Shown here one piece after another: positions 8,428 to 18,007 of a DNA stretch of 24,000 nt. Below the pieces are notes generated by a model. It ran no database searches, was not told the DNA's origin, and was given only the letters and a program-made list of their open reading frames with translations. Source of the stretch: Candidatus Micrarchaeota archaeon (GTDB taxonomy: Archaea > Micrarchaeota > Micrarchaeia > Micrarchaeales > Micrarchaeaceae); NCBI GenBank assembly GCA_021801355.1, contig JAJYYB010000010.1, positions 104,272 through 128,271 of the forward strand, in the 5' to 3' direction. The translations under genes and the position numbers were made by a program. How positions within the stretch are numbered: position 1 is the stretch's first letter; each line of letters starts with the position of its first letter.

Positions 8428-9522
8428 ATGGAAGGTTCTAAGACTCAAAAGATGCGCGGCGCGAAAGAACCGGTCTTCGTAATAAAGCCGGCGTTCAAGC
8501 GGTTCGGCTTGGACAACTTGCACATAGCGCTGATTGCATTAGTAATCATATTGGTAGCGCTCGCGTTCGCTCTGTCTACTTTCAAGCTAGGCCCGATAGT
8601 GTACAACTGCCCTTACGGGGTGATTAACACTACAAACCAGTCAAGCCAGCTAAATTGCATAACGCCTAAGTATAACCAATCCCAGGCGCTTTCGGCTGCA
8701 GAGAGCATAATAGCGAGCTATGGCTCGGTCAACTCATCCGAGGCGATACTGCCCTATTATTCTCTGGTTAACGAGGCCAACATTTCCTACATAAACAGAA
8801 CGAACGAATGGCTCGTTTCGATACCTTATGTACTGCCTGCCAGTTACGGTTCCTCCAACGGACCATATGGGATCTCGCTCCTGCTTTCAGGCGATAATCT
8901 TTCTTTGATATCGGCTTACCTGCTGACCCACAAGCCTGCATCTTACACTACTGACAAAACCATCGCGCTCGGCGTAGTCGATGTGAACACTGCGACGCCT
9001 GCCACATCAAAGCCGCCGTTCCCGGTCTACGCGATCGTGGACCCTTACGAGCCAGGCGCGATATCAAGCCTTTTCACAGCAGTAAATGCCTCCAAACTTT
9101 ATGGGAACAGGATAAACATGAGTTATAAGTTCATATACACTCCAGAGTACGGTGAGCGGTTCTACAGCAGTGTCGGCATAAACGACACCCAACTTCTTGG
9201 ATATTACCTGTTTTGTGGAGCGAACCAGAGGAACTTCTACGGGTTCCTGAAGAACCTAAGTATAGAGTATATCGGGACGCCGCTCAGCAACCTTACACTG
9301 TATGAAACTGCAGTTGGTTCAGGGCTCAATGTGAGCTCATTGAACGCTTGCTTCGGCCCAGCTTACAACAATGCGACGCAAAAGCTGGATGCGCAGGTAT
9401 ATCTCGTAGACTACTACGGAATAACGCAGACGCCTGCGTTCCTGGTAAACGATAAGTACCTAACTTTGCCGCAGACGCTTAACGAGGCCATAAATTACGT
9501 ACTCAACACGACTGCGAAGTAG
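8428..9522 (+). CDS. Membrane-anchored or exported putative glycoprotein with a C-terminal DsbA-like thioredoxin-fold domain that lacks the CXXC active site
   Basis: The 364-aa ORF has an N-terminal TM/signal anchor (LHIALIALVIILVALAFALSTF). I counted about 15 N-x-S/T sequons by eye. The C-terminal region aligns by eye with the DsbA/Thioredoxin_4 pattern: VYAIVDPYEPGAISSLF (the CXXC position reads EPGA), YYLFCGANQRNFYGFLKNL, LNVSSLNACFGP and YGITQTPAFLVNDKY (compare GV-x-GTPTFF[IV]NG). Confidence 0.6.
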   Translation: MEGSKTQKMRGAKEPVFVIKPAFKRFGLDNLHIALIALVIILVALAFALSTFKLGPIVYNCPYGVINTTNQSSQLNCITPKYNQSQALSAAESIIASYGSVNSSEAILPYYSLVNEANISYINRTNEWLVSIPYVLPASYGSSNGPYGISLLLSGDNLSLISAYLLTHKPASYTTDKTIALGVVDVNTATPATSKPPFPVYAIVDPYEPGAISSLFTAVNASKLYGNRINMSYKFIYTPEYGERFYSSVGINDTQLLGYYLFCGANQRNFYGFLKNLSIEYIGTPLSNLTLYETAVGSGLNVSSLNACFGPAYNNATQKLDAQVYLVDYYGITQTPAFLVNDKYLTLPQTLNEAINYVLNTTAK

Positions 9523-9536
9523 GCGCGAATGGTTTA

Positions 9537-9838
9537 ATGTGCATAATAGTAGGCGTTGACCCTGGCAAAACAGTTGGAATAGCATGCATATCGCTTGACG
9601 GAAACTTGGTTTACAGCCCCCACCGGACATTCGCCGGAATCGGATGGGCGGTAAGCGAGATAAGCACGCTTACGTGGCTGCGCTGAAGGCTTACAATGCT
9701 TATGCGAACAAGCTCAACCAAGCTGAACACATAGCCAGGGAGAGCAATGTTGCTGACATAGATATCGTCAAATCCGGGGTGATAAGCCGATATCCGATAA
9801 ATGAAGCTACACTGAATAAAAAATTTAACAGGAGATAA
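9537..9838 (+). pseudogene. Decayed remnant of a DUF460/COG2433-type RNase H-fold protein gene, frameshifted and internally deleted
   Basis: Fragment A (ATG 9537 to TGA 9686) reads MCIIVGVDPGKTVGIACISLDGNLVYSP..., matching the IVG[IV]DPG-x-T-x-GIA-x-LDL-x-G N-terminus of the family as I remember it. Fragment B is in another frame, open from 9599, and is the track ORF 9644-9838. It reads GGKRDKHAYVAALKAYNAYANKL, matching the H-E-R-D-A-L-A-A-A-L-K-A-Y motif region. Only about 100 of the more than 500 codons expected for this family remain. Confidence 0.5.
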
Positions 9839-9873
9839 TAGCATTAGGCTAATCGCTTGCCATCTATCCCTGT

Positions 9874-9881
9874 ATTTTAAA
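9874..9881 (+). promoter_or_regulatory. TATA-like box (ATTTTAAA) for tRNA-Glu
   Basis: The box ends 26 nt upstream of the first tRNA nucleotide (9908). Confidence 0.45.
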
Positions 9882-9907
9882 CTTTTCGCACCAAATAGGT
9901 TACTGCA

Positions 9908-9982
9908 GCTCTGATCGTCTAGTCCGGTCAAGGACACGGCCCTCTCAAGGCCGGAACTCGGGTTCAAATCCCGATCAGAGCA
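9908..9982 (+). tRNA. tRNA-Glu (anticodon CUC)
   Basis: I folded it by hand. The acceptor is GCTCTGA/TCAGAGC with discriminator A. The D-arm is GTCT-AGTCCGGTCAA-GGAC. The anticodon arm is CGGCC-CTCTCAA-GGCCG (U33, CTC, A37). The variable loop is GAAC. The T-arm is TCGGG-TTCAAAT-CCCGA. All stems pair fully apart from one G-U. It is 75 nt, with no intron and no encoded CCA. Confidence 0.9.
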
Positions 9983-10129
9983 TTTCCAATTTGCGAGCAC
10001 AAGCCAGGGTTCGAATAGGGAGGAACCCGCCAATTCCTCAAGCCCAAAACTAGCAAAAGGGGGGTTCGATTACAGCTCATTCCTGAAGCTCATTTTTGAT
10101 ATATGTGTCGATATTGGATTGTGTCTGTG

Positions 10130-10900
10130 TCAACGCTTACCGTATTTCCTGTAAAGCAGGTATGAGAGATTGCCTACCAGAAGTACTATAAGCAACGGAT
10201 ATGCAAGTCCAAGATAGGCGAAGACCAGATATAAAACTGCAAGCGACGCCCCATAGGCAAGTTGGGCGTAATTATTGTGCGGCGAGGTTTTGGGCTCTAT
10301 TAGCATCACAAATGCAAAGAAAAAGTTTATACTGAAGAGAATCGAGACCGCAGTTGCAAGAGATAGCTGGCTTGCATTCGTTATGATGTATAGAAAGAAG
10401 CTCACTACAACAAACGATATTGCGGTAGGCAGGCGTCTTGCCTCATATGCCAATATGATAAGTACAGGGGTTAGAGTTATTGCAATCCCATATATGTTGT
10501 AATTGCTCGCTACCCACCACTCATCTCCGAGACCGAAGAGAGGCAGGGCCGCTATCATGCCTAGCGTCGCAGGGTTGAATATGTTTGTGCTTTTGTACTG
10601 GATGAAGAATTTTGATGCTACTGCGATTAACGAGGCAATTATGATTAGCAGGATAGGCGCATTTATCGGGACTACGGAACCGATTATCAGTCCAGTAATG
10701 AGACCAGAATATGGTATCTTAAATGCATGCTTTAGGTAGTATTTTCTTATCAGGATTTCCATTATGCCAGAAGCGATGATAGCTGATATTAGGGCTAGTG
10801 GAAAAGTATGCAGCGTGTAGCTTGAGATTATTGCAAGTGCAGAAAGCAGTACGATTGCCCAGATGTACATTGAGCTGACTGGCTGGCCTAGTATTTTCAT
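10130..10900 (-). CDS. Polytopic membrane protein of the RnfD/NqrB-like (NQR2_RnfD_RnfE) family, short form
   Basis: The 256-aa ORF has about 8 predicted TM segments. The motif KSTNIFNPATLGMIAALPLFGLGDEWW resembles the conserved H-[IL]-FNPA-[LA]-x-G-R...W block of RnfD/NqrB. It is the last gene of a tightly spaced three-gene unit, with a 7-nt gap to the upstream gene. Confidence 0.5.
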   Translation of the reverse strand: MKILGQPVSSMYIWAIVLLSALAIISSYTLHTFPLALISAIIASGIMEILIRKYYLKHAFKIPYSGLITGLIIGSVVPINAPILLIIIASLIAVASKFFIQYKSTNIFNPATLGMIAALPLFGLGDEWWVASNYNIYGIAITLTPVLIILAYEARRLPTAISFVVVSFFLYIITNASQLSLATAVSILFSINFFFAFVMLIEPKTSPHNNYAQLAYGASLAVLYLVFAYLGLAYPLLIVLLVGNLSYLLYRKYGKR

Positions 10901-10907
10901 GGCATCA

Positions 10908-11381
10908 TTAGGCGGCTACATAACCGTTAGGGTCTACCAGAACGAACCCATCATCTCCAAGGGATGAGTCGAAGTGGTATCCGTCGTCGCCAAATGTGGC
11001 CTCTATTATGTAGAGTTTGTAGCCTGGCTTGATTATCAGTATATGGCTTTGGTTCGTAGCCGTGAGGGAGAGTTTTACTTCTGAAGAGCTATTTTGCAAT
11101 TGGATTGATGTTATATTGAATCCAGCAAGAGCCGAAGCAGCTTGCTGGGAGATGGGCTCCGGGTATATCTGGTACGAGTACGGTGCATATTGGGTATTGG
11201 CAAATAGTACTTTTGATGAGTTTGTGCTCGTCTGATTTGACGGTGCGGCCTGCTGGCTATTCTGCGAATTTATTAGTGTACCGGAAGTTCCTTGATGACC
11301 GACTAATATGAATGCAAATGCGCCAACTATTAGTGCAAGTATAAGTATGCCCCCTATTAATTTTGTATTCATATGGATCAC
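10908..11381 (-). CDS. Hypothetical exported or membrane-anchored protein
   Basis: The 157-aa ORF has an N-terminal anchor (KLIGGILILALIVGAFAFILV) followed by a Ser/Asn/Gln-rich linker with sequons (NQT, NSS, NIT, NSS, NQS) and a beta-rich C-terminus. The start may instead be the second Met (MNTK, 11372). I recognise no family. Confidence 0.5.
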   Translation of the reverse strand: MIHMNTKLIGGILILALIVGAFAFILVGHQGTSGTLINSQNSQQAAPSNQTSTNSSKVLFANTQYAPYSYQIYPEPISQQAASALAGFNITSIQLQNSSSEVKLSLTATNQSHILIIKPGYKLYIIEATFGDDGYHFDSSLGDDGFVLVDPNGYVAA

Positions 11382-11402
11382 TTACCGCATTGAACTATTA
11401 AA

Positions 11403-11927
11403 TCATACAGGACTGAACTCTGCTAGTTTCTTCCACCATTTTATTCTTTTCTCGATATAATAATCTATCGAGTATTTACTTGGTCCATACTTAGCGTTTA
11501 TAAGTATGAGAGCGAGGAAGACAAAAGCGTATATCACCCCTGTACCTATATCTGTAGAACCTGGACCGTACGGACCCCCGAAACCTTCTGGTACGGACCA
11601 TATTATTAAACTCAATAGGATTCCAGCTGTATACGTTATCTTCCTCAGGCTTCCAGAGATTAACGCTATGCCTAACAGTAGTTCGCCACCACCTATAAGA
11701 TAAACCCAAATAGCCGGATTTTGACTTACGACACCTGCCCAAAAGTTAAACCATGGCATGAGCCATGCGGGCTGGCCCTGACCTGCAGCCTGAACCAATT
11801 GCGGGAATACTGATACCATGCCAGGCTGGAACTTTAATGACCCATCAATGACCCACACAAAGCCAAAGACTACCCTCATAAAGATTTTCAGTCCTTCGCT
11901 GTTCCTGTATAACCAGTGTTCTTTCAT
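11403..11927 (-). CDS. DoxX-like family integral membrane protein (putative)
   Basis: The 174-aa ORF has 4 TM segments. Its pattern FMRVVFGFVWVIDGSLKF ... GGGELLLGIALISG ... resembles the DoxX/DoxD small membrane protein architecture, with the R-x-x-x-G...G-x-x-K and E-x-x-x-G motifs. A TTAAATAT box lies about 30-39 nt upstream on the coding strand. Confidence 0.45.
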   Translation of the reverse strand: MKEHWLYRNSEGLKIFMRVVFGFVWVIDGSLKFQPGMVSVFPQLVQAAGQGQPAWLMPWFNFWAGVVSQNPAIWVYLIGGGELLLGIALISGSLRKITYTAGILLSLIIWSVPEGFGGPYGPGSTDIGTGVIYAFVFLALILINAKYGPSKYSIDYYIEKRIKWWKKLAEFSPV

Positions 11928-12076
11928 AAAAAGCCCCTAATAGGCTAACTTTTCTTACATATTTAACTTGCCGGGTATAAAAAATTATACCTGCACTTGC
12001 TATTAAAATGTATGATGGATGGGGCTGATTACAGGTTATCCGTCATTATAAGTTAACAAATGGAAAAGGATTAGAA

Positions 12077-12577
12077 TCAAGCTTCCTCTGTCAGGTCGGC
12101 TCCTTCATCATCGAATTCTGCTGTCTCGAAGTCCTCTGGACCGTATTCCTCGAATTCGGTAGAGCCAGGGACATCTACGAATTGCGGCCCTCTTTTTGCG
12201 TTTTCACGGGCCTCTTCAGCTGCAGCCACGTGCCGATGCTGGTAGATGTTCATTGCTAAATATACTGCGCCGAGACCAACTGCCACAGGGAATGCAACTG
12301 TGGCCACGACTACCGTAGCAGCGCTGCTTGCAGCCCCGGCTGCTATAGCGAGCGAACCGAGCGCTGCAAGAGAGACTGGCCGCTTGTTTTTATTGTACAC
12401 TCTTGCAAAGTCCTCTTCCCTCTTAGCTATCGCGTTTTGCTCCTTCTTGTACTCGGCTTCATAATCAGAATCAGAGTACTTCTTTGATGCGCGCTGCCTG
12501 AGCAGATGCTCGTCAGTATAGTTGCGTTGAGCGTTTGTCGATTCTTTTTTCGTCTTCTCGGCCTCCATGATTACCAT
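12077..12577 (-). CDS. Hypothetical single-pass (or hairpin) membrane protein with a charged N-terminus and an acidic C-terminal tail
   Basis: The 166-aa ORF has an Ala/Gly/Val-rich hydrophobic core (LAALGSLAIAAGAASSAATVVVATVAFPVAVGLGAVYLAMNI). This is flanked by a Lys/Glu-rich N-terminus and a C-terminus rich in D/E/F (EFEEYGPEDFETAEFDDEGADLTEEA). A CTATATAC box lies about 34-41 nt upstream. I recognise no family. Confidence 0.45.
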   Translation of the reverse strand: MVIMEAEKTKKESTNAQRNYTDEHLLRQRASKKYSDSDYEAEYKKEQNAIAKREEDFARVYNKNKRPVSLAALGSLAIAAGAASSAATVVVATVAFPVAVGLGAVYLAMNIYQHRHVAAAEEARENAKRGPQFVDVPGSTEFEEYGPEDFETAEFDDEGADLTEEA

Positions 12578-12632
12578 CGTTATTTACGTTAATTTAATGG
12601 AACTACGTGTATATAGCGCTTCCGTGTAAGCT

Positions 12633-14030
12633 TTATTTGGGCTGTGGCTGCCCTAATAGCCTCAGGAGCTTTGAGAGGCTGGACTTCGGCGGCTTGGCCT
12701 TTATTACGGGCTGGCTGTCATACGTGTAATCGTAGTCGGAAACGCCCATGAACTGTATGAAAGCGTGGTTTTTGTCGCGCTCCCCTGCTATCATGTATGG
12801 TAGCGGGTTCGTAGGATCTATCACAAAAGTCCTTCCGTCTATCTCAACCTCGACCCATGCATGCAGAGCGTTGCTGTTGCTGCTCATTGCCGTGCCGCCC
12901 ACGAAAAGCGGTGCCGCACTGGACTTCCCCTCAGCAAGCTCCTTCTTGAGGATCATGCACGTTATAAGTGCATACTCAAAGCAGACGCCGGTGCCGTTCT
13001 TGCCGAAGATACTCCTTTTCTTGTACTTTATAAAGTGGTCAAGCGGAATGTCTTCGACATTGTCATTGTATTTGGTAACTATCTTCTCGTAGCCGTGCAG
13101 ATCGTATTGTATGTTGTTATGGACGTAGTTTGCCAAGAGTATGACCTTGAGCAGTTTCTCTGCGGTAGCCTTGTTTCCTACAAATTTGATAAGCTGCTGC
13201 TTTGTCCCATCCGAGAGAGTGTTCTTGGTGGCGTAGGTTTCCGCATCGGTTATGAACTTTGACAGGATCCCGTCTGTCGGCTGGGGTATGCGTATGCCGT
13301 ATCCGCCATTGGTAACGCGCTCACCATAATTGAATGGATATGCGTAGTTGTTGGGATCTGGCCTTATTTCCGAATTGCTAGGGATTTTCTTGTTCAGTAT
13401 GTCCATCCTCGGAGGATTCTTGTCAAGCACTATTGTCGAGTCGTTGCCTATCTCTGTCTGCTCGATATCTAGTATTGTCAGCCTGTCCAGCTGGGCGCCG
13501 TTTTCAGTGGCGCTTGTGACGTTGCTCTTTATGTGCGATATGAATACCAGAAGCTTGCCCTCCCCTACGTCTATAGATGTGCCGCTTTCAATCTTTGAAT
13601 GTATGACAGTTATAACGCTGTTCTTTCCGTGGGCTATCAGCGTGACGTTCTTGTCTATCTGTGAGTTCTCTATGTAGTTGTTATCATCATCGCTCGCGTT
13701 CTTCTTGCGCGAACCGAAGCTCACTATGGTGCAGTGGGACCCTATCTTGCAGTCCTTCAACTCTATGTCCCCATACACGACAGCGCTTTTCGCTATAGTG
13801 GTGTTATCCAGGCGCACGTTTGCGCCGACCCAGCCGCCCTTGCTGCCGTCCGGATTGCTGTGCCTCCTGAGCTCTATCTCTCTCTCCTTGCCGTTGATGT
13901 TCAGCTTGGCCTTTATGGGCGTGTCCTCATTCTTTAGGTTGCTAACGTAATTGGAAAGGCTCTCAGCACTTTCGAAAACAAGCATCTTCTGTGCGCTTGC
14001 ATCGTTCTTGCGCTCTATGCTCTTCGACAT
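12633..14030 (-). CDS. Transglutaminase-like cysteine protease-fold protein with an N-terminal beta-helix-like repeat domain
   Basis: The 465-aa ORF has a C-terminal core carrying the transglutaminase-like triad context: GTGVCFEYALITCMIL (Cys350), NALHAWVEVEIDGRTF (His390) and VIDPTN (Asp405). Residues about 68-205 show hexad-periodic short beta-strand repeats (YIENSQIDKNVTLIAHGKNSVITVIHSKIESGTSIDVGEGKLLVFISHIKSN...). These are reminiscent of left-handed beta-helix or bactofilin-like folds. I see no signal peptide. GGGGAG lies 5 nt upstream of the ATG. Confidence 0.7.
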   Translation of the reverse strand: MSKSIERKNDASAQKMLVFESAESLSNYVSNLKNEDTPIKAKLNINGKEREIELRRHSNPDGSKGGWVGANVRLDNTTIAKSAVVYGDIELKDCKIGSHCTIVSFGSRKKNASDDDNNYIENSQIDKNVTLIAHGKNSVITVIHSKIESGTSIDVGEGKLLVFISHIKSNVTSATENGAQLDRLTILDIEQTEIGNDSTIVLDKNPPRMDILNKKIPSNSEIRPDPNNYAYPFNYGERVTNGGYGIRIPQPTDGILSKFITDAETYATKNTLSDGTKQQLIKFVGNKATAEKLLKVILLANYVHNNIQYDLHGYEKIVTKYNDNVEDIPLDHFIKYKKRSIFGKNGTGVCFEYALITCMILKKELAEGKSSAAPLFVGGTAMSSNSNALHAWVEVEIDGRTFVIDPTNPLPYMIAGERDKNHAFIQFMGVSDYDYTYDSQPVIKAKPPKSSLSKLLRLLGQPQPK

Positions 14031-14118
14031 TTTTACTCCCCTTTTTATTATAATGAAGTTACTGGCGTATTTATACCCTTCCTAGACAGCAGAATTCCAT
14101 GTTTGGACTGCTTCGCAT

Positions 14119-15339
14119 CTAGTCAAATGCCCTAAATTCGTCCCCGAGCACTGCAGCAGCTATCTTCAGCTCCTGAATCTCGTCACTTCCCTCATATATC
14201 CTCGCCACGCGGCTGTCGCAGAAAAGCCTGCCAACAGGGGAGAGCAGGGAGTATCCGAAGCCGCCGAAGACCTGCACGCCCCGGTCTGCGGACTCGAAAG
14301 CTAGCCTTGAGGCGATCTTCTTGGCAAGCGAAACGCGCATGTCCACCTCTTCCCGTAGCTCATGGTTTCCTGGATTCTGCTCGTATTCGGCTTTCCTAAG
14401 AGCAGCGAAATAGACAGGCCAGCGCGCCATCTCGAGATTCTGCCTTATCTCTGCTATGTGCCTCTGTATCAGCTGGTGCCTGCCTATCGGCTTGCCGAAC
14501 TGGACGCGCTCCTTAGACCTCGCCACCACTGCGTTTAGGCACCCCTCTATTACACCTACACAGCCGGATGCGACACCAAGGCGTGCGTTCAAAAGGGCGG
14601 AGTAAGCTATGCCGAGGCCTTTTCCTGGTTCGCCGAGCATATCGCCTTCTGAAACCTCTACACCATTAAATTCAAGCATGGCTGTATCGGATGTCAGCAA
14701 GCCTATCTTGTCCCTCAATGCCATTCTGTTCAATCCTGCGGAATTACCGTCTACTATGAAAGCGCTTATCTGATCCGATTTGTCCTTTGATCGTGCGAAA
14801 ACGATTATGTTGTCTGCTATCGTTCCGTTGGATATCAGGTATTTTGTGCCGTTGAGGATGAACCGGTCGCCCTTCTTCTCGTACTGCATTTTCAATGAAG
14901 CTGGATCGCTGCCTGCCTCAGGCTCAGTCAGCCCAAAGGCGAACACCTTATCCGCGCTCACTATGGATTTGAGATAACGACTCTTCTGCCCATCGTTGCC
15001 CCACCTCTGCAGGGTTTGGCCGCATAGCAGTACCTGCACATTGTAGAAACTCGAGAATCCAAGGCCTATCTGGCCAAGTCTTTCCTTCGTCAGCACAGTT
15101 ATTAGGGGCTTGGCGCCAGAGCCGCCGAACTCTTTCTTTATCGGTATGCCGAGTAAGCCGTACTTAGCAGCTATCTTCGGTGCATCTGAATTGAATTCAT
15201 GCTTTATGTAGTGCTCAAATTCAGGAACCGTCATTTCTTCAGCGGCCTTGTCAGCTTTTTCAAGTATAGAAAACTCCTCATTTGAGAAATTGTAAAAATT
15301 CTTTAGGTCGTCTATCGCCTGTTGTAAAAGCTTCTCCAT
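14119..15339 (-). CDS. Acyl-CoA dehydrogenase (FAD-dependent)
   Basis: The motifs FGLTEPEAGSDPASL, YLISNG, GLGIAYSALLNARLGVASGCVG, RVQFGKPIGRHQLIQ, VQVFGGFGY and ARIYEGSDEIQ (catalytic Glu region) are diagnostic. I place the start at the ATG at 15339 (MEKLLQQ...), not the track start at 15378, which would overlap the upstream stop. GGTG lies upstream. The gap to the coaBC stop is 16 nt, so co-transcription is likely. Confidence 0.9.
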   Translation of the reverse strand: MEKLLQQAIDDLKNFYNFSNEEFSILEKADKAAEEMTVPEFEHYIKHEFNSDAPKIAAKYGLLGIPIKKEFGGSGAKPLITVLTKERLGQIGLGFSSFYNVQVLLCGQTLQRWGNDGQKSRYLKSIVSADKVFAFGLTEPEAGSDPASLKMQYEKKGDRFILNGTKYLISNGTIADNIIVFARSKDKSDQISAFIVDGNSAGLNRMALRDKIGLLTSDTAMLEFNGVEVSEGDMLGEPGKGLGIAYSALLNARLGVASGCVGVIEGCLNAVVARSKERVQFGKPIGRHQLIQRHIAEIRQNLEMARWPVYFAALRKAEYEQNPGNHELREEVDMRVSLAKKIASRLAFESADRGVQVFGGFGYSLLSPVGRLFCDSRVARIYEGSDEIQELKIAAAVLGDEFRAFD

Positions 15340-15355
15340 GTTCACACCATCGTAT

Positions 15356-17314
15356 TCATTGAATAGAACCAAGCTCACTTATTATCTGGAATGCCAATTC
15401 CTCTTTTGTACCATCTATAAATCTTGCTTTCCCGCTCTTTGATATAATATATGCAGGATGCTTTTTACCATTTATCTTGTTCAAGTCGTTTACGACCATG
15501 AGAGCGGCACCTATCTCTTTCATTCTCTTGGTGCCTGCACTTATGAGTTTTGTATCTGGAAGTCCTGCCTCTAACTTAAATCCTACGATTAAAATTTTTG
15601 GGAACATCTTTGATATCTTCTCTATTGTCTTTGGTGTCGGCTTCAATGTAATCTTCCATTCGGCATCTGATTTTACTTTGGAGCTGACATATGCACTAGG
15701 CTTAAAGTCTAGTATCGCTGCAGGAAACATTACTATGTCGTACTTGTTGGAACTGAGTTCTGAGACAGTGCTTTCAAGCATCTCCTCCACGGTTGCTACA
15801 TTTATGGACCTTAAATGCCTTGGAGGCTTAACGATCGCAGGACCAGTTATTACTGTGACGTTAGAACCGGCTTTGAAAGCTTCCCTTGCGATTGAAGCGC
15901 CAAGCCCGCCGCTTGAGTAATTTGATATGTAGCGCACCGCATCTAAGTTGTATCTGGTAGGGCCGGAAAGTACCAACACGCCCTTGCCATTGAGCCTTCC
16001 CACCGCTATCTTCCTGAAAACGTTTTCTATGACCTCATCCCTGCGCGGTATTTTAGCTATTCCCTCCTCGATGCGCGGCGCTATTACCGTGGCGCCTCTC
16101 TTTCTCAATTCATCAAGCCCCTCCTTAAGGAGGTGGTTCTGATACAGTTTCATGTTCATTGCAGGCACTATAACTAATTTGTCACCAGGATTTGAAGCGC
16201 ATAAAGTAGTAACTGCATTGTCGGCTATCCCCAATACGATCTTCCTTATAGTATTGAACGTAGCTGGATAGACGAGCACCACGTCATAATCGGATAGATG
16301 TTCGGCCAGGCCGCTAAGCTCAACGAAGACCTTCCTTCCAGTCGCCCATTCCATAAGCTTTGGGCTCAGACCGAACTCTATGGCGCCATGGGTCATGAAG
16401 CAGTCAATAGTGCATCCGTTCCTCCTGAGTTCCCTCGCGATTTTTGGAGCGCCTATGCAGGCTACGCTGCCTGACATACAGAACGCAACTTTTACGTCAT
16501 TCATCCTGTTATTCTTAAGCTCTATCTCTCCGCCTGGTGCATGCTCCGCCATCAAGTTACTATAATCATTGAAATGCCCTGTGCACGAATTGCCTTCGCA
16601 GTACAGTATCCTTGATTCTGTCTTATTCTTCGATATTGATATGATTGTGGAAGAAGTCATTGTCCAGTCATTTTTACCATGGAAGCAGATTGCAGGGTGG
16701 CCGTGTTCCGATTTATGGTCTGCTGAGAGAACCTTGAGCCCCTCTATGGCTGAATTCGCATCTTTAAGCGAGAGTTTTGATGCTAGGTCGATGGCACGCT
16801 TCTCCCTCTCTTCAGAAGCGTGGATTATGTCTGCAAACACAGAGCCATATTTCGTATTCTCCCGTCTTGTAAATGATGTCATCACATGGATCCCTGGTTT
16901 AAGCTCTGATTTTTTAATGTGGCCGTCCTCGAAAAGTATCCTGAACGCGTTCTGCCTGTCAGCGATTATGAAGTTGCCCCTCTTATATCCGTTAAGCAGT
17001 TCCTTCTCGAGGTATTTTACTGCGTCCTTCGAGTTTTTGAACATGCCAAGCACATCCTGGATGAGAAGGCCACGGCTTCGCCTGAACTGCGTATCTATAC
17101 CGCTGTGCTGGTCGCTTACGGCTGCAAAAACTCCGGAATCGTTGAAGCCCACCCATGTGCCGTTGCTTCTGACGTCAACTGGAGCGTATATCTTTTGTGA
17201 AGATGCTGTTTTCCTAGGAGGGTACTCTAGAGTGCCTGCCCTTTCGTACCTGTTGTGCATAGCTACTATCGGCGCGTCTTTTACTACCTTATACAGGAAT
17301 ACAAGTGTGCACAT
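15356..17314 (-). CDS. coaBC: Three-domain fusion protein: NRDE/TANGO2-family (Cys2 Ntn-like) domain, phosphopantothenoylcysteine decarboxylase (CoaC) and phosphopantothenate-cysteine ligase (CoaB)
   Basis: This is one uninterrupted 652-codon ORF. Residues 1 to about 255 read MCTLVFLY...IVAMHNRYERAG...NGTWVGFNDSGVFAAVSD...RSRGLLIQDVL...NGYKRGNFIIAD...PAICFHGKNDWTMTSSTIISI. By eye these match the NRDE/TANGO2 blocks (MC start, NRDE, GGTWLG, G-x-x-AALTN, RG-x-L, YGTR-x-x-T). Residues 271 to about 432 read VAFCMSGSVA, YPATFNTIRKIVLGIADNAVTT and VIVPAMNMKLYQN (flavoprotein CoaC). Residues about 443-652 read VLSGPTRYNLDAVRYISNYSSGGLGASIAREAFKAGSNVTVITGP and PAAILDFKP (CoaB/DFP). Confidence 0.85.
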   Translation of the reverse strand: MCTLVFLYKVVKDAPIVAMHNRYERAGTLEYPPRKTASSQKIYAPVDVRSNGTWVGFNDSGVFAAVSDQHSGIDTQFRRSRGLLIQDVLGMFKNSKDAVKYLEKELLNGYKRGNFIIADRQNAFRILFEDGHIKKSELKPGIHVMTSFTRRENTKYGSVFADIIHASEEREKRAIDLASKLSLKDANSAIEGLKVLSADHKSEHGHPAICFHGKNDWTMTSSTIISISKNKTESRILYCEGNSCTGHFNDYSNLMAEHAPGGEIELKNNRMNDVKVAFCMSGSVACIGAPKIARELRRNGCTIDCFMTHGAIEFGLSPKLMEWATGRKVFVELSGLAEHLSDYDVVLVYPATFNTIRKIVLGIADNAVTTLCASNPGDKLVIVPAMNMKLYQNHLLKEGLDELRKRGATVIAPRIEEGIAKIPRRDEVIENVFRKIAVGRLNGKGVLVLSGPTRYNLDAVRYISNYSSGGLGASIAREAFKAGSNVTVITGPAIVKPPRHLRSINVATVEEMLESTVSELSSNKYDIVMFPAAILDFKPSAYVSSKVKSDAEWKITLKPTPKTIEKISKMFPKILIVGFKLEAGLPDTKLISAGTKRMKEIGAALMVVNDLNKINGKKHPAYIISKSGKARFIDGTKEELAFQIISELGSIQ

Positions 17315-17481
17315 TTAATCCGTGTTTGATTTCGCTGACAAGAAATAAACACATGAAACTTCCTTAATACTTTCCTTGCAATTGAATGGCTATTTCTTCT
17401 CTAATAAATTTTACGCGCCTCAGGTACAAATCCACACCGCCATATTTTGCTTAAAGTAGCAAAATGGGCAGTAGATATGTC

Positions 17482-17489
17482 TTTAAATA
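17482..17489 (+). promoter_or_regulatory. TATA box (TTTAAATA) for coaD
   Basis: The box ends 26 nt upstream of the ATG at 17516, which implies a leaderless or near-leaderless transcript. It lies in the 201-bp divergent intergenic region shared with the NRDE-coaBC gene. Confidence 0.4.
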
Positions 17490-17515
17490 TAAAACTGCAC
17501 TTTATATGGAGTTAA

Positions 17516-18007
17516 ATGAGGATTGCGATTTACGCGGGAAGCTTTGACCCGCCTACCCTTGGCCATCTATGGATGATAGAGCGAGGAGCCTCGCTTTTCG
17601 ACAGACTGGTAGTCGCTATAGGCACCAACACTGAGAAAAGGTACACTTTCTCAGTCGAGGAGAGGCTAGATATGCTTGCCAAGCTCACAGAGAAGTACAA
17701 GAACGTAAAAGTAGACTTTTTCAAGAACCAGTTTCTGGTAAAATATGCGAAAATTATGGGAGCAAACTACATCATACGTGGCATAAGGACCGAGGCTGAT
17801 TTTCAGTATGAAAGAGATATGCGCCTGATAAATGGAGACTTGGAGCCGAGCATAGAGACTGTGTTCCTGATGCCACCGCGTGAAATAGCTGAGATAAGTT
17901 CAAGCTTTGTCAAGGGGCTCGTTGGTCCGCCGGGTTGGGAGAAGATCGTTAGCAGATACCTGCCTGGACCCGTCTACAAGAAGTTCATAACCAAGCTTGG
18001 CAAGTAG
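17516..18007 (+). CDS. coaD: Phosphopantetheine adenylyltransferase, bacterial CoaD type
   Basis: The 163-aa ORF reads IAIYAGSFDPPTLGHLWMIERGASLFDRLVVAI (T/H-x-G-H nucleotidyltransferase motif), YIIRGIRTEADFQYERDMRLIN and ISSSFVKGL. It is collinear with bacterial CoaD (for example the E. coli motifs AVYPGTFDPITNGH, IRGLRAVADFEYE and ISSSLVKEV, recalled from memory). Confidence 0.88.
   Translation: MRIAIYAGSFDPPTLGHLWMIERGASLFDRLVVAIGTNTEKRYTFSVEERLDMLAKLTEKYKNVKVDFFKNQFLVKYAKIMGANYIIRGIRTEADFQYERDMRLINGDLEPSIETVFLMPPREIAEISSSFVKGLVGPPGWEKIVSRYLPGPVYKKFITKLGK

Follow-up and report, generated by a model that had tools for sequence, protein, structure and literature searches.

A CoA-Related Gene Trio in a Micrarchaeal Genome

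The window analyzed here, a 24,000-nucleotide stretch of a Candidatus Micrarchaeota genome (G000, contig C21, positions 104272-128271), carries three adjacent genes related to coenzyme A (CoA): one for an acyl-CoA dehydrogenase (ACAD), one in which a TANGO2-like (NRDE) domain is fused to the CoaC and CoaB domains of CoA biosynthesis, and coaD, which is transcribed away from the other two. Gene identities were taken from Pfam and NCBIfam profile matches, a listing of open reading frames (ORFs), and direct reading of the sequence. We conclude that the trio is probably a recent juxtaposition, specific to one species-level lineage, and not a conserved CoA module. The host is a reduced DPANN-type archaeon of the Micrarchaeota type, with a genome of ~1.07 Mb in 21 contigs (96% complete); genome sizes among the 40 relatives sampled within its genus, family, and order span 0.6-1.3 Mb, and homologues of the window ACAD at 56-68% identity (P0129, P0140, P0165, P0189, P0205, P0231) are labelled Micrarchaeota, Micrarchaeaceae, or Micrarchaeum acidiphilum ARMAN-2.

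The ACAD gene (14119..15339, minus strand) begins with ATG and encodes a 406-aa protein of the short/branched-chain type that matches PF02771, PF02770, and PF00441. The 652-aa fusion gene (15356..17314, minus strand) has three Pfam domains and a TIGR00521 match: a TANGO2-like cysteine N-terminal nucleophile (Cys-Ntn) domain that begins MCTL (PF05742; residues 1-231, 16622..17314), a CoaC flavoprotein domain for phosphopantothenoylcysteine decarboxylase (PPCDC) with the motif PAMNMKLY (PF02441; residues 275-420, 16055..16492), and a CoaB domain for phosphopantothenoylcysteine synthetase (PPCS) with the motifs ISNYSSG and AAILDFKP (PF04127; residues 441-614, 15473..15994). The fusion stop codon TGA (15358-15356) and the ACAD ATG (15339) lie on the same strand and are separated by a directly read spacer of 16 nt (15340..15355), part of which is a GGTG Shine-Dalgarno-like element (15345-15348). 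On the other side, a divergent intergenic region of 201 bp (17315..17515) leads to the plus-strand gene for CoaD (17516..18007), a bacterial-type phosphopantetheine adenylyltransferase (PPAT) of 163 aa that matches TIGR01510. Only the final 34 bp of this region are common to L123, a 5.1-kb ENA contig that is the closest relative of the window locus; they include a TATA-box-like TTTAAATAT on the plus strand (17482..17490), 26-34 nt 5′ of the CoaD ATG, and a GGAG lies at 17508-17511. A repeat search returned a perfect 8-bp inverted repeat, ATTTTGCT-N6-AGCAAAAT (17444..17465), inside a 2,133-bp lineage-specific segment (15349..17481) that comprises the fusion gene and 167 bp upstream of it and is absent from L123 by blastn.

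Three independent sources (an ENA contig of 179 kb, a JGI contig of 51 kb, and a Logan contig of 12 kb) yield an identical fusion protein with the same neighbors, and since the gene order is identical in all three assemblies, the arrangement is real and a chimera can be rejected. The first-pass annotation had described three adjacent CoA-related genes that cover the steps from phosphopantothenate to dephospho-CoA, with a 16-nt gap, a GGTG element, and a 201-bp divergent spacer. The profile matches and the three assemblies bear out the gene content, the CoaB, CoaC, and CoaD families are all matched, and the spacings are exactly as claimed.

The TANGO2-CoaC-CoaB Fusion

The fusion ORF is free of internal stop codons. 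It scores 50.1 bits against TANGO2 (PF05742; cut-off 22.6) over residues 1-231 and 268.5 bits against the coaBC model TIGR00521 (cut-off 219.7), with PF02441 followed by PF04127 in the expected order; conservation of the PAMNMKLY, ISNYSSG, and AAILDF motifs underlies its predicted PPCS and PPCDC roles. Approximately 34 full-length homologues share the architecture at 41-58% identity, and the Cys at position 2 is kept in those whose called start aligns with that of the window protein. The canonical NRDE motif is not found: the window protein has NRYE, and members of the fused clade retain N21, R22, and Y23 (R22 and Y23 are invariant in the homologue alignment) while the fourth position varies, with A as the consensus. 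No other TANGO2 domain is encoded in G000.

A profile built from the fusion homologues matches bacterial CoaBC (6tgv) and, weakly, human TANGO2 (8sv7, 9bwa), which only the profile reached; the TANGO2 domain alone gave no match in a single-sequence phmmer search against the PDB. The window domain thus resembles human TANGO2 (PDB 8SV7, 9BWA) in its above-cut-off PF05742 score, its Cys2, and the weak profile match, but differs in carrying NRY[A/E] in place of NRDE, in its fusion to CoaBC, and in the lack of a significant single-sequence PDB match. The human TANGO2 structure papers that we searched make no mention of a CoaBC fusion. The CoaBC portion, which matches both TIGR00521 and 6tgv, is similar to bacterial CoaBC (Dfp), but its host is archaeal and the tree groups it with archaeal, not bacterial, sequences.

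In that tree (80 CoaBC sequences), the window protein groups with its counterpart from the congener G001 and with one unfused metagenomic sequence (support 100), and this clade is nested within a clade of 15 (support 100) that otherwise consists of Bathyarchaeia/Thermoproteota fusions. The latter share the three-domain architecture at 41-49% identity, but the window gene comes from a DPANN genome of an order that is otherwise without CoaBC, and flanking coaD and ACAD genes are seen only at the window locus. In our order-wide survey (41 genomes, in which G001, G002, and G003 are the congeners of G000), CoaBC of any kind occurs in two genomes, both in the genus of G000. This placement fits transfer of an already-fused gene into the genus, and the gene was probably acquired horizontally. 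The Bathyarchaeia-type fusion and the bacterial-type coaD appear to be accessory genes in this DPANN genus.

Two variant arrangements were seen among the relatives of the fusion. At locus L013, the TANGO2 and CoaBC parts are overlapping ORFs, and in a Nitrososphaerota metagenome-assembled genome (MAG) an Ntn-like ORF lies directly 3′ of CoaBC, with sub-threshold scores for TANGO2 (17.9 bits) and AAT (17.7 bits). Separately, the tree contains a CoaBC from a contig labelled Anaerovoracaceae bacterium (L080; CAVFUJ010000044.1) that is nearly identical to those of Methanomassiliicoccales MAGs (branch lengths 0.003-0.008), which suggests a mis-binned archaeal contig within a bacterial MAG.

CoaD and the Divergent Spacer

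CoaD scores 179.7 bits against TIGR01510 (cut-off 103.3). Its GSFDPPTLGH (TLGH) and EISSSFVKG (ISSS) motifs both align to the PPAT 3nd5, which is the top hit (E 2e-33) among its best solved relatives, all of them bacterial PPATs, and the archaeal/eukaryotic PPAT model (COG1019; NF001985) is absent among the 11 NCBIfam matches of the protein. The window CoaD is therefore a bacterial-type PPAT, predicted to adenylylate 4′-phosphopantetheine. It is like bacterial CoaD (3nd5, 1b6t) in its TIGR01510 match, structural relatives, and TLGH and ISSS motifs, but, in contrast to the bacterial setting of CoaD and CoaBC, no CoaA/CoaX or CoaE was found to accompany the two window genes. The gene is present in 6 of the 41 genomes, and its nearest named homologues include proteins from Woesearchaeota, Parcubacteria, and Planctomycetes. 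A second PPAT in G000 was considered and rejected, the only other CTP_transf_like nucleotidyltransferase being nicotinamide mononucleotide adenylyltransferase.

The TATA-like box upstream of coaD is kept in L123 (TTTAAATAT...GGAGTTAAA), and we infer that it is the putative coaD promoter. The inverted repeat, in contrast, falls in the lineage-specific segment and would have arrived with the upstream region of the fusion; it is not part of a conserved coaD promoter. A sigma-70/terminator scan, whose models are unsuited to an archaeon, gave counts near shuffle expectation (8 promoter-like elements vs 6.4 expected; 3 terminator-like elements vs 4.1).

The Acyl-CoA Dehydrogenase

All three ACAD domains (N, M, and C) are matched, and the motif IYEGSDE supplies the catalytic Glu. 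The closest solved structures are butyryl/short-chain ACADs (4l1f, 5lnx, 1buc); the window protein shares with them the three domains and a catalytic Glu in the YEG motif, but the electron transfer flavoprotein (ETF; PF01012), their electron acceptor, was not found in G000, a 96% complete genome that encodes three ACAD paralogues including the window copy. The ATG at 15339 is a better start than the overlapping GTG at 15378, because homologues are 405-407 aa long and the homology with L123 begins just 9 nt upstream of this ATG. The GGTG element goes with the ACAD gene: L123 retains it although its ACAD is not preceded by a fusion gene.

Given the shared strand, the 16-nt gap, the absence of a T-run, and the lack of room for a promoter, read-through from the fusion gene into ACAD is plausible, although an internal promoter within the 3′ end of the fusion gene is conceivable. 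Phylogenetically, the only partner of the window ACAD is the L123 copy (support 99), followed by copies from other genera (support 97), whereas the congeners carry different paralogues.

One of the G000 paralogues (C7:34536-35756), 66% identical to the window ACAD, lies ~3 kb from genes for the large and B12-binding subunits of methylmalonyl-CoA mutase and for MeaB (G000:C7:30197-35756, including L118). This group is a better candidate for a cluster of acyl-CoA catabolism than the window locus.

The Locus in Relatives

The most informative comparison is with L123, whose ACAD and CoaD both share 83% identity with those of the window and are the best match for both among 5.8 billion clusters. 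Its gene order (Nre, CoaD on the reverse strand, a 397-bp spacer, ACAD) is that of the window minus the fusion. By blastn, L123 matches window positions 20056-17482 and 15348-14123 at ~74.5% identity; the 2,133 bp between them (15349-17481) are replaced by 351 unrelated bp, in which tblastn detects no fusion remnant. The conserved edges fall at the TATA-like TTTAAATAT on the CoaD side and at GGTG on the ACAD side, so coaD kept its own putative promoter, and ACAD kept its element resembling a ribosome-binding site but lost its former upstream region. The segment has an unremarkable GC content (45.9% vs 48.3% genome-wide). A mobile-element insertion was considered, and no signature was found around the segment in repeats, element genes, or GC.

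In the congeners, the three genes are scattered. In G001 they are spread over four contigs: C1 carries the fusion, C13 carries CoaD, and C20 and C8 carry ACADs. G002 and G003 retain a CoaD-Nre-M24 peptidase-GatE-GatD block, but upstream of CoaD, where G000 has the fusion and ACAD, they have a DUF218 gene and an ABC1 kinase, joined in G002 by a CLC channel. In other genera of the family, coaD neighbors genes for serine hydroxymethyltransferase/IMP dehydrogenase (G021) or a beta-propeller protein (G008).

A wider comparison covered 12 related loci, namely those of eleven genomes outside the family (L002-L009, L011-L014) and the congeneric G001 locus (L010), which carry either the fusion or TANGO2 and CoaBC as adjacent reading frames. 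The non-micrarchaeal loci are mostly labelled Bathyarchaeota/Bathyarchaeia or Thermoprotei, with single entries labelled Nitrososphaerales, "Scotarchaeum", and uncultured archaeon. A match to the window ACAD or CoaD within 6 kb occurs at 0 of the 12; among 62 flanking ORFs of these loci no CoA family recurs, and no family appears more than three times. The called-gene contexts of two further contigs agree in showing no recurring CoA neighbor.

These comparisons do not support the proposal of the first-pass annotation of a linked, co-regulated CoA cluster, for which it had itself named scattering of the genes in related genomes as a refuting observation; they are scattered in three congeners, and no CoA neighbor recurs at the other fusion loci. 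The corollary that the neighborhood strengthens the functional inference for the NRDE domain is weakly supported, as linkage confined to one lineage adds little.

Elsewhere in the genus, the fusion is associated with a different gene. It lies ~2 kb from a malic-enzyme gene in G001, and the ortholog of this malic-enzyme gene in G002 has, 134 bp away, a 32-aa N-terminal piece of the fusion (56-62% identical). This remnant (G002:C16; L108:7605-7774) retains only fusion residues 1-32 and 68-105; because G002 has such a decayed remnant and yet keeps coaD, the genus is in the process of losing the fusion gene. The malic-enzyme site of G000 carries no fusion remnant, and its synteny with both congeners holds downstream (C12:19715 onward) and breaks upstream.

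An Incomplete CoA Pathway

The first-pass annotation had seen only part of the CoA pathway in the window and suggested that the organism might salvage a late precursor. Extended to the whole of G000, the inventory is equally sparse. Profile searches found no phosphopantothenate synthetase (PPS; PF02006), no detectable pantoate kinase (PoK), no archaeal dephospho-CoA kinase (DPCK; PF04019), no pantothenate kinase (PanK) of type II or III, no pantothenate synthetase (PanC), and no CoaE (PF01121), for which there are three partial matches only, confined to the N-terminal P-loop region and each at most 16.9 bits. Weak matches to PanK type I/PRK were traced to MeaB, a cytidylate-kinase-like protein, an ABC ATPase, an AAA_18 kinase (L117), and an ORF without a family, which leaves PanK types I-III all unrepresented. 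In the order-wide survey, PPS was detected in none of the 41 genomes and archaeal DPCK in 2, and the remainder of the order is almost devoid of CoA biosynthesis. These counts agree with the literature, in which DPCK has been reported absent from some host-dependent DPANN archaea (PMC6650551).

AAA_18 P-loop kinases (L115, L116, L117) were considered as the missing DPCK and set aside: they occur in 30 of 41 relatives and do not track CoaD (6 of 41). Archaeal P-loop proteins related to them had no DPCK activity in Thermococcus kodakarensis (PMC6650551). Two AAA_18 paralogues of G000, at C14:23520-24080 and C6:4737-5291, are 81% identical and show weak CoaE/CMP-kinase similarity; G001, G002, and G003 have one copy each.

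The pathway of T. kodakarensis (PoK, PPS, PPCS/PPCDC, a COG1019-type PPAT, and the DPCK TK1697; PMC6650551) provides a useful reference. As in that organism, a bifunctional CoaB/CoaC is predicted to perform the two middle steps. G000 differs in that PoK/PPS and archaeal DPCK (PF04019) were not found, in that its PPAT is of the bacterial CoaD type, and in the extra N-terminal TANGO2-like domain of its CoaBC. Salvage or host dependence is well supported by this inventory. The suggestion of late-precursor salvage fares less evenly: the genome-wide lack of the upstream and final enzymes agrees with it and makes it plausible, but it fails to explain why CoaBC is retained, because a late precursor such as pantetheine or 4′-phosphopantetheine would bypass CoaBC. 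Retention of CoaBC implies some source of 4′-phosphopantothenate.

Could the TANGO2 domain be related to this gap? PPS is found in 0 of 12 fusion-bearing genomes vs 11 of 15 archaea with unfused CoaBC (Fisher p = 2e-4), and DPCK is present in 9 of the 10 Bathyarchaeia among the fusion-bearing genomes. The absence of PPS in Bathyarchaeia has, however, already been stated (PMC6650551), and in a class-wide sample of 151 Bathyarchaeia genomes, each at least 80% complete, PPS is missing from 107 (71%). In this sample 21 genomes encode TANGO2 (2 fused, 1 split) and 44 encode PPS, with 3 having the two together and 89 lacking both (Fisher p = 0.13); stand-alone TANGO2-family genes, with open frames mostly of 247-306 aa, account for 18 of the 151. 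TANGO2 is absent from the four genomes that have an unfused CoaBC but no PPS. The idea that TANGO2 replaces PoK/PPS was rejected, as the class-wide association is not significant and PPS-less genomes with unfused CoaBC manage without TANGO2. Lack of PPS is the default in Bathyarchaeia, and the fusion/PPS pattern adds little beyond it.

Origin of the Trio

We posit that the ancestor of the genus carried the fusion gene beside a malic-enzyme block, from which the G002 lineage would be losing it and the G000 lineage would have moved it into the spacer between CoaD and ACAD. The fusion was probably moved in this lineage because two congeners place it, or its remnant, beside the malic-enzyme gene. 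During this event, the 2.1-kb segment, consisting of the fusion gene together with the sequence upstream of it, would have been placed between two older facing neighbors, coaD and an ACAD paralogue. Relocation would bring CoaB, CoaC, and CoaD together and replace the former 351-bp upstream region of ACAD with the fusion gene, so that ACAD would most likely be read through from the fusion promoter, with coaD retaining its conserved TATA-box promoter. By family membership, the fusion and CoaD would convert 4′-phosphopantothenate to dephospho-CoA; the supply of 4′-phosphopantothenate and the final kinase step would have to come from the host or from unrecognized enzymes, and the position of ACAD would reflect history, not a role in CoA synthesis.

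Several observations weigh against this account. The junctions of the segment carry no direct repeats or mobile-element genes that point to a mechanism. Landing beside coaD among ~1,100 intergenic sites is improbable if random, and lineage selection for clustering is conceivable. The direction of change is inferred, and the trio could instead be ancestral, with the fusion lost in L123. Branching within the 15-member CoaBC clade is unresolved, and the direction of transfer depends mainly on the absence of CoaBC elsewhere in the order. Finally, the genomes other than G000 are MAGs that are 60-97% complete, in which an undetected gene is not a proven absence.

The improbability of a chance landing is also an argument for a selected, co-regulated CoA module, in which the fusion and ACAD would form an operon, coaD would be governed from the shared divergent region, and the neighborhood would inform the role of the NRDE domain. 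The fusion lies beside the only other CoA-biosynthesis gene in the genome, a chance of ~1 in 1,000 by our own after-the-fact estimate; the fusion-ACAD spacing of 16 nt has no T-run, a perfect 8-bp inverted repeat is located in the 201-bp divergent spacer, and the arrangement persists in samples from three sources. We nevertheless consider such a module unlikely. The linkage is unconserved in three congeners, in L123, and at twelve other loci; the inverted repeat lies within the inserted segment and is missing from the L123 coaD promoter; ACAD has paralogues elsewhere, one of them beside a methylmalonyl-CoA mutase cluster; and the ACAD-coaD adjacency is older than the arrival of the fusion and is itself limited to two close lineages. 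The opposite polarity, in which ACAD-fusion-coaD would be ancestral to the species and L123 or to the genus, with deletion of the fusion in L123 and with the copies near malic enzyme secondary, draws on the visible loss of the fusion within the genus (the G002 remnant of 32-38 aa), on the propensity of DPANN genomes for gene loss, and on the fact that L123 is known only as a 5.1-kb contig, so that the fusion could lie elsewhere in its genome. It is nonetheless quite improbable, since tblastn finds no trace of the fusion in the 351-bp spacer of L123, two congeners independently have the fusion or a remnant at the malic-enzyme block (with no remnant at the orthologous site of G000), and G002 and G003 share different upstream neighbors of coaD, the DUF218 gene and the ABC1 kinase.

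A functional reason for the move would be offered by a salvage loop in which the TANGO2 domain, as a putative Cys-Ntn amidase, strips cysteamine from scavenged or damaged phosphopantetheine or CoA species and feeds CoaB, whereupon CoaBC and CoaD rebuild the thiol end; proximity to coaD would then have been selected. A structural study of human TANGO2 models an attack of Cys2 on the pantothenate amide of acyl-CoA (PMC12359130), which favors this scheme, as do, on the genomic side, the absence of PPS from all 12 fusion-bearing genomes, the DPCK found in 9 of the 10 Bathyarchaeia among them, and the failure to find a PanK of any type or PanC in G000. We regard the loop as very unlikely all the same: 71% of Bathyarchaeia lack PPS whether or not they have TANGO2 (p = 0.13), PPS-less archaea with unfused CoaBC have no TANGO2, and the NRDE motif, reported to be necessary for acyl-CoA binding, is NRY[A/E] here. 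Relocation of the fusion into an existing coaD-ACAD spacer remains the reading that we favor.

As a one-lineage juxtaposition, the locus is not citable as independent neighborhood evidence for the function of the TANGO2 family, for which the sole association conserved across genomes is the fusion itself. It does provide a clean natural case in which pathway genes were apparently united by relocation in a reduced genome, and the L123 site without the fusion allows a before/after comparison. By retaining just the central part of the CoA pathway, i.e., CoaB, CoaC, and a bacterial-type CoaD, this DPANN lineage also sharpens a question raised for Bathyarchaeota, Korarchaeota, and DPANN (PMC6650551): where does 4′-phosphopantothenate come from, and how is dephospho-CoA phosphorylated?

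Neighboring Genes

The fusion and ACAD genes belong to a variable region of the genus (10130-17481). Between a conserved flank (8428-10033) and ACAD, G000 carries at 10130-14030 an RnfD-like membrane protein, a 465-aa transglutaminase-like protein, and three ORFs below family cut-offs (one of them a sub-threshold DoxX), where the congeners hold the CLC channel, ABC1 kinase, and DUF218 genes instead.

Around related CoaBC genes, the fusion is immediately preceded by an isochorismatase-family (cysteine hydrolase) gene in three related Bathyarchaeia contigs, and such a gene also lies divergently upstream of the unfused CoaBC closest to that of the window (L002:5321-5944, L008:5353-5940, L114:7315-7896, L124:217-792). 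It could be a small recurring neighbor or merely a sign of shared ancestry. In G001, the fusion adjoins a gene for a 642-aa protein that has no Pfam family apart from a weak DUF2341 match; more than 12 partial or whole paralogues of it are spread over G000 contigs C12, C9, C13, C2, and C8 (e.g., C12:101223-102830), and it probably belongs to a large, fast-evolving family.

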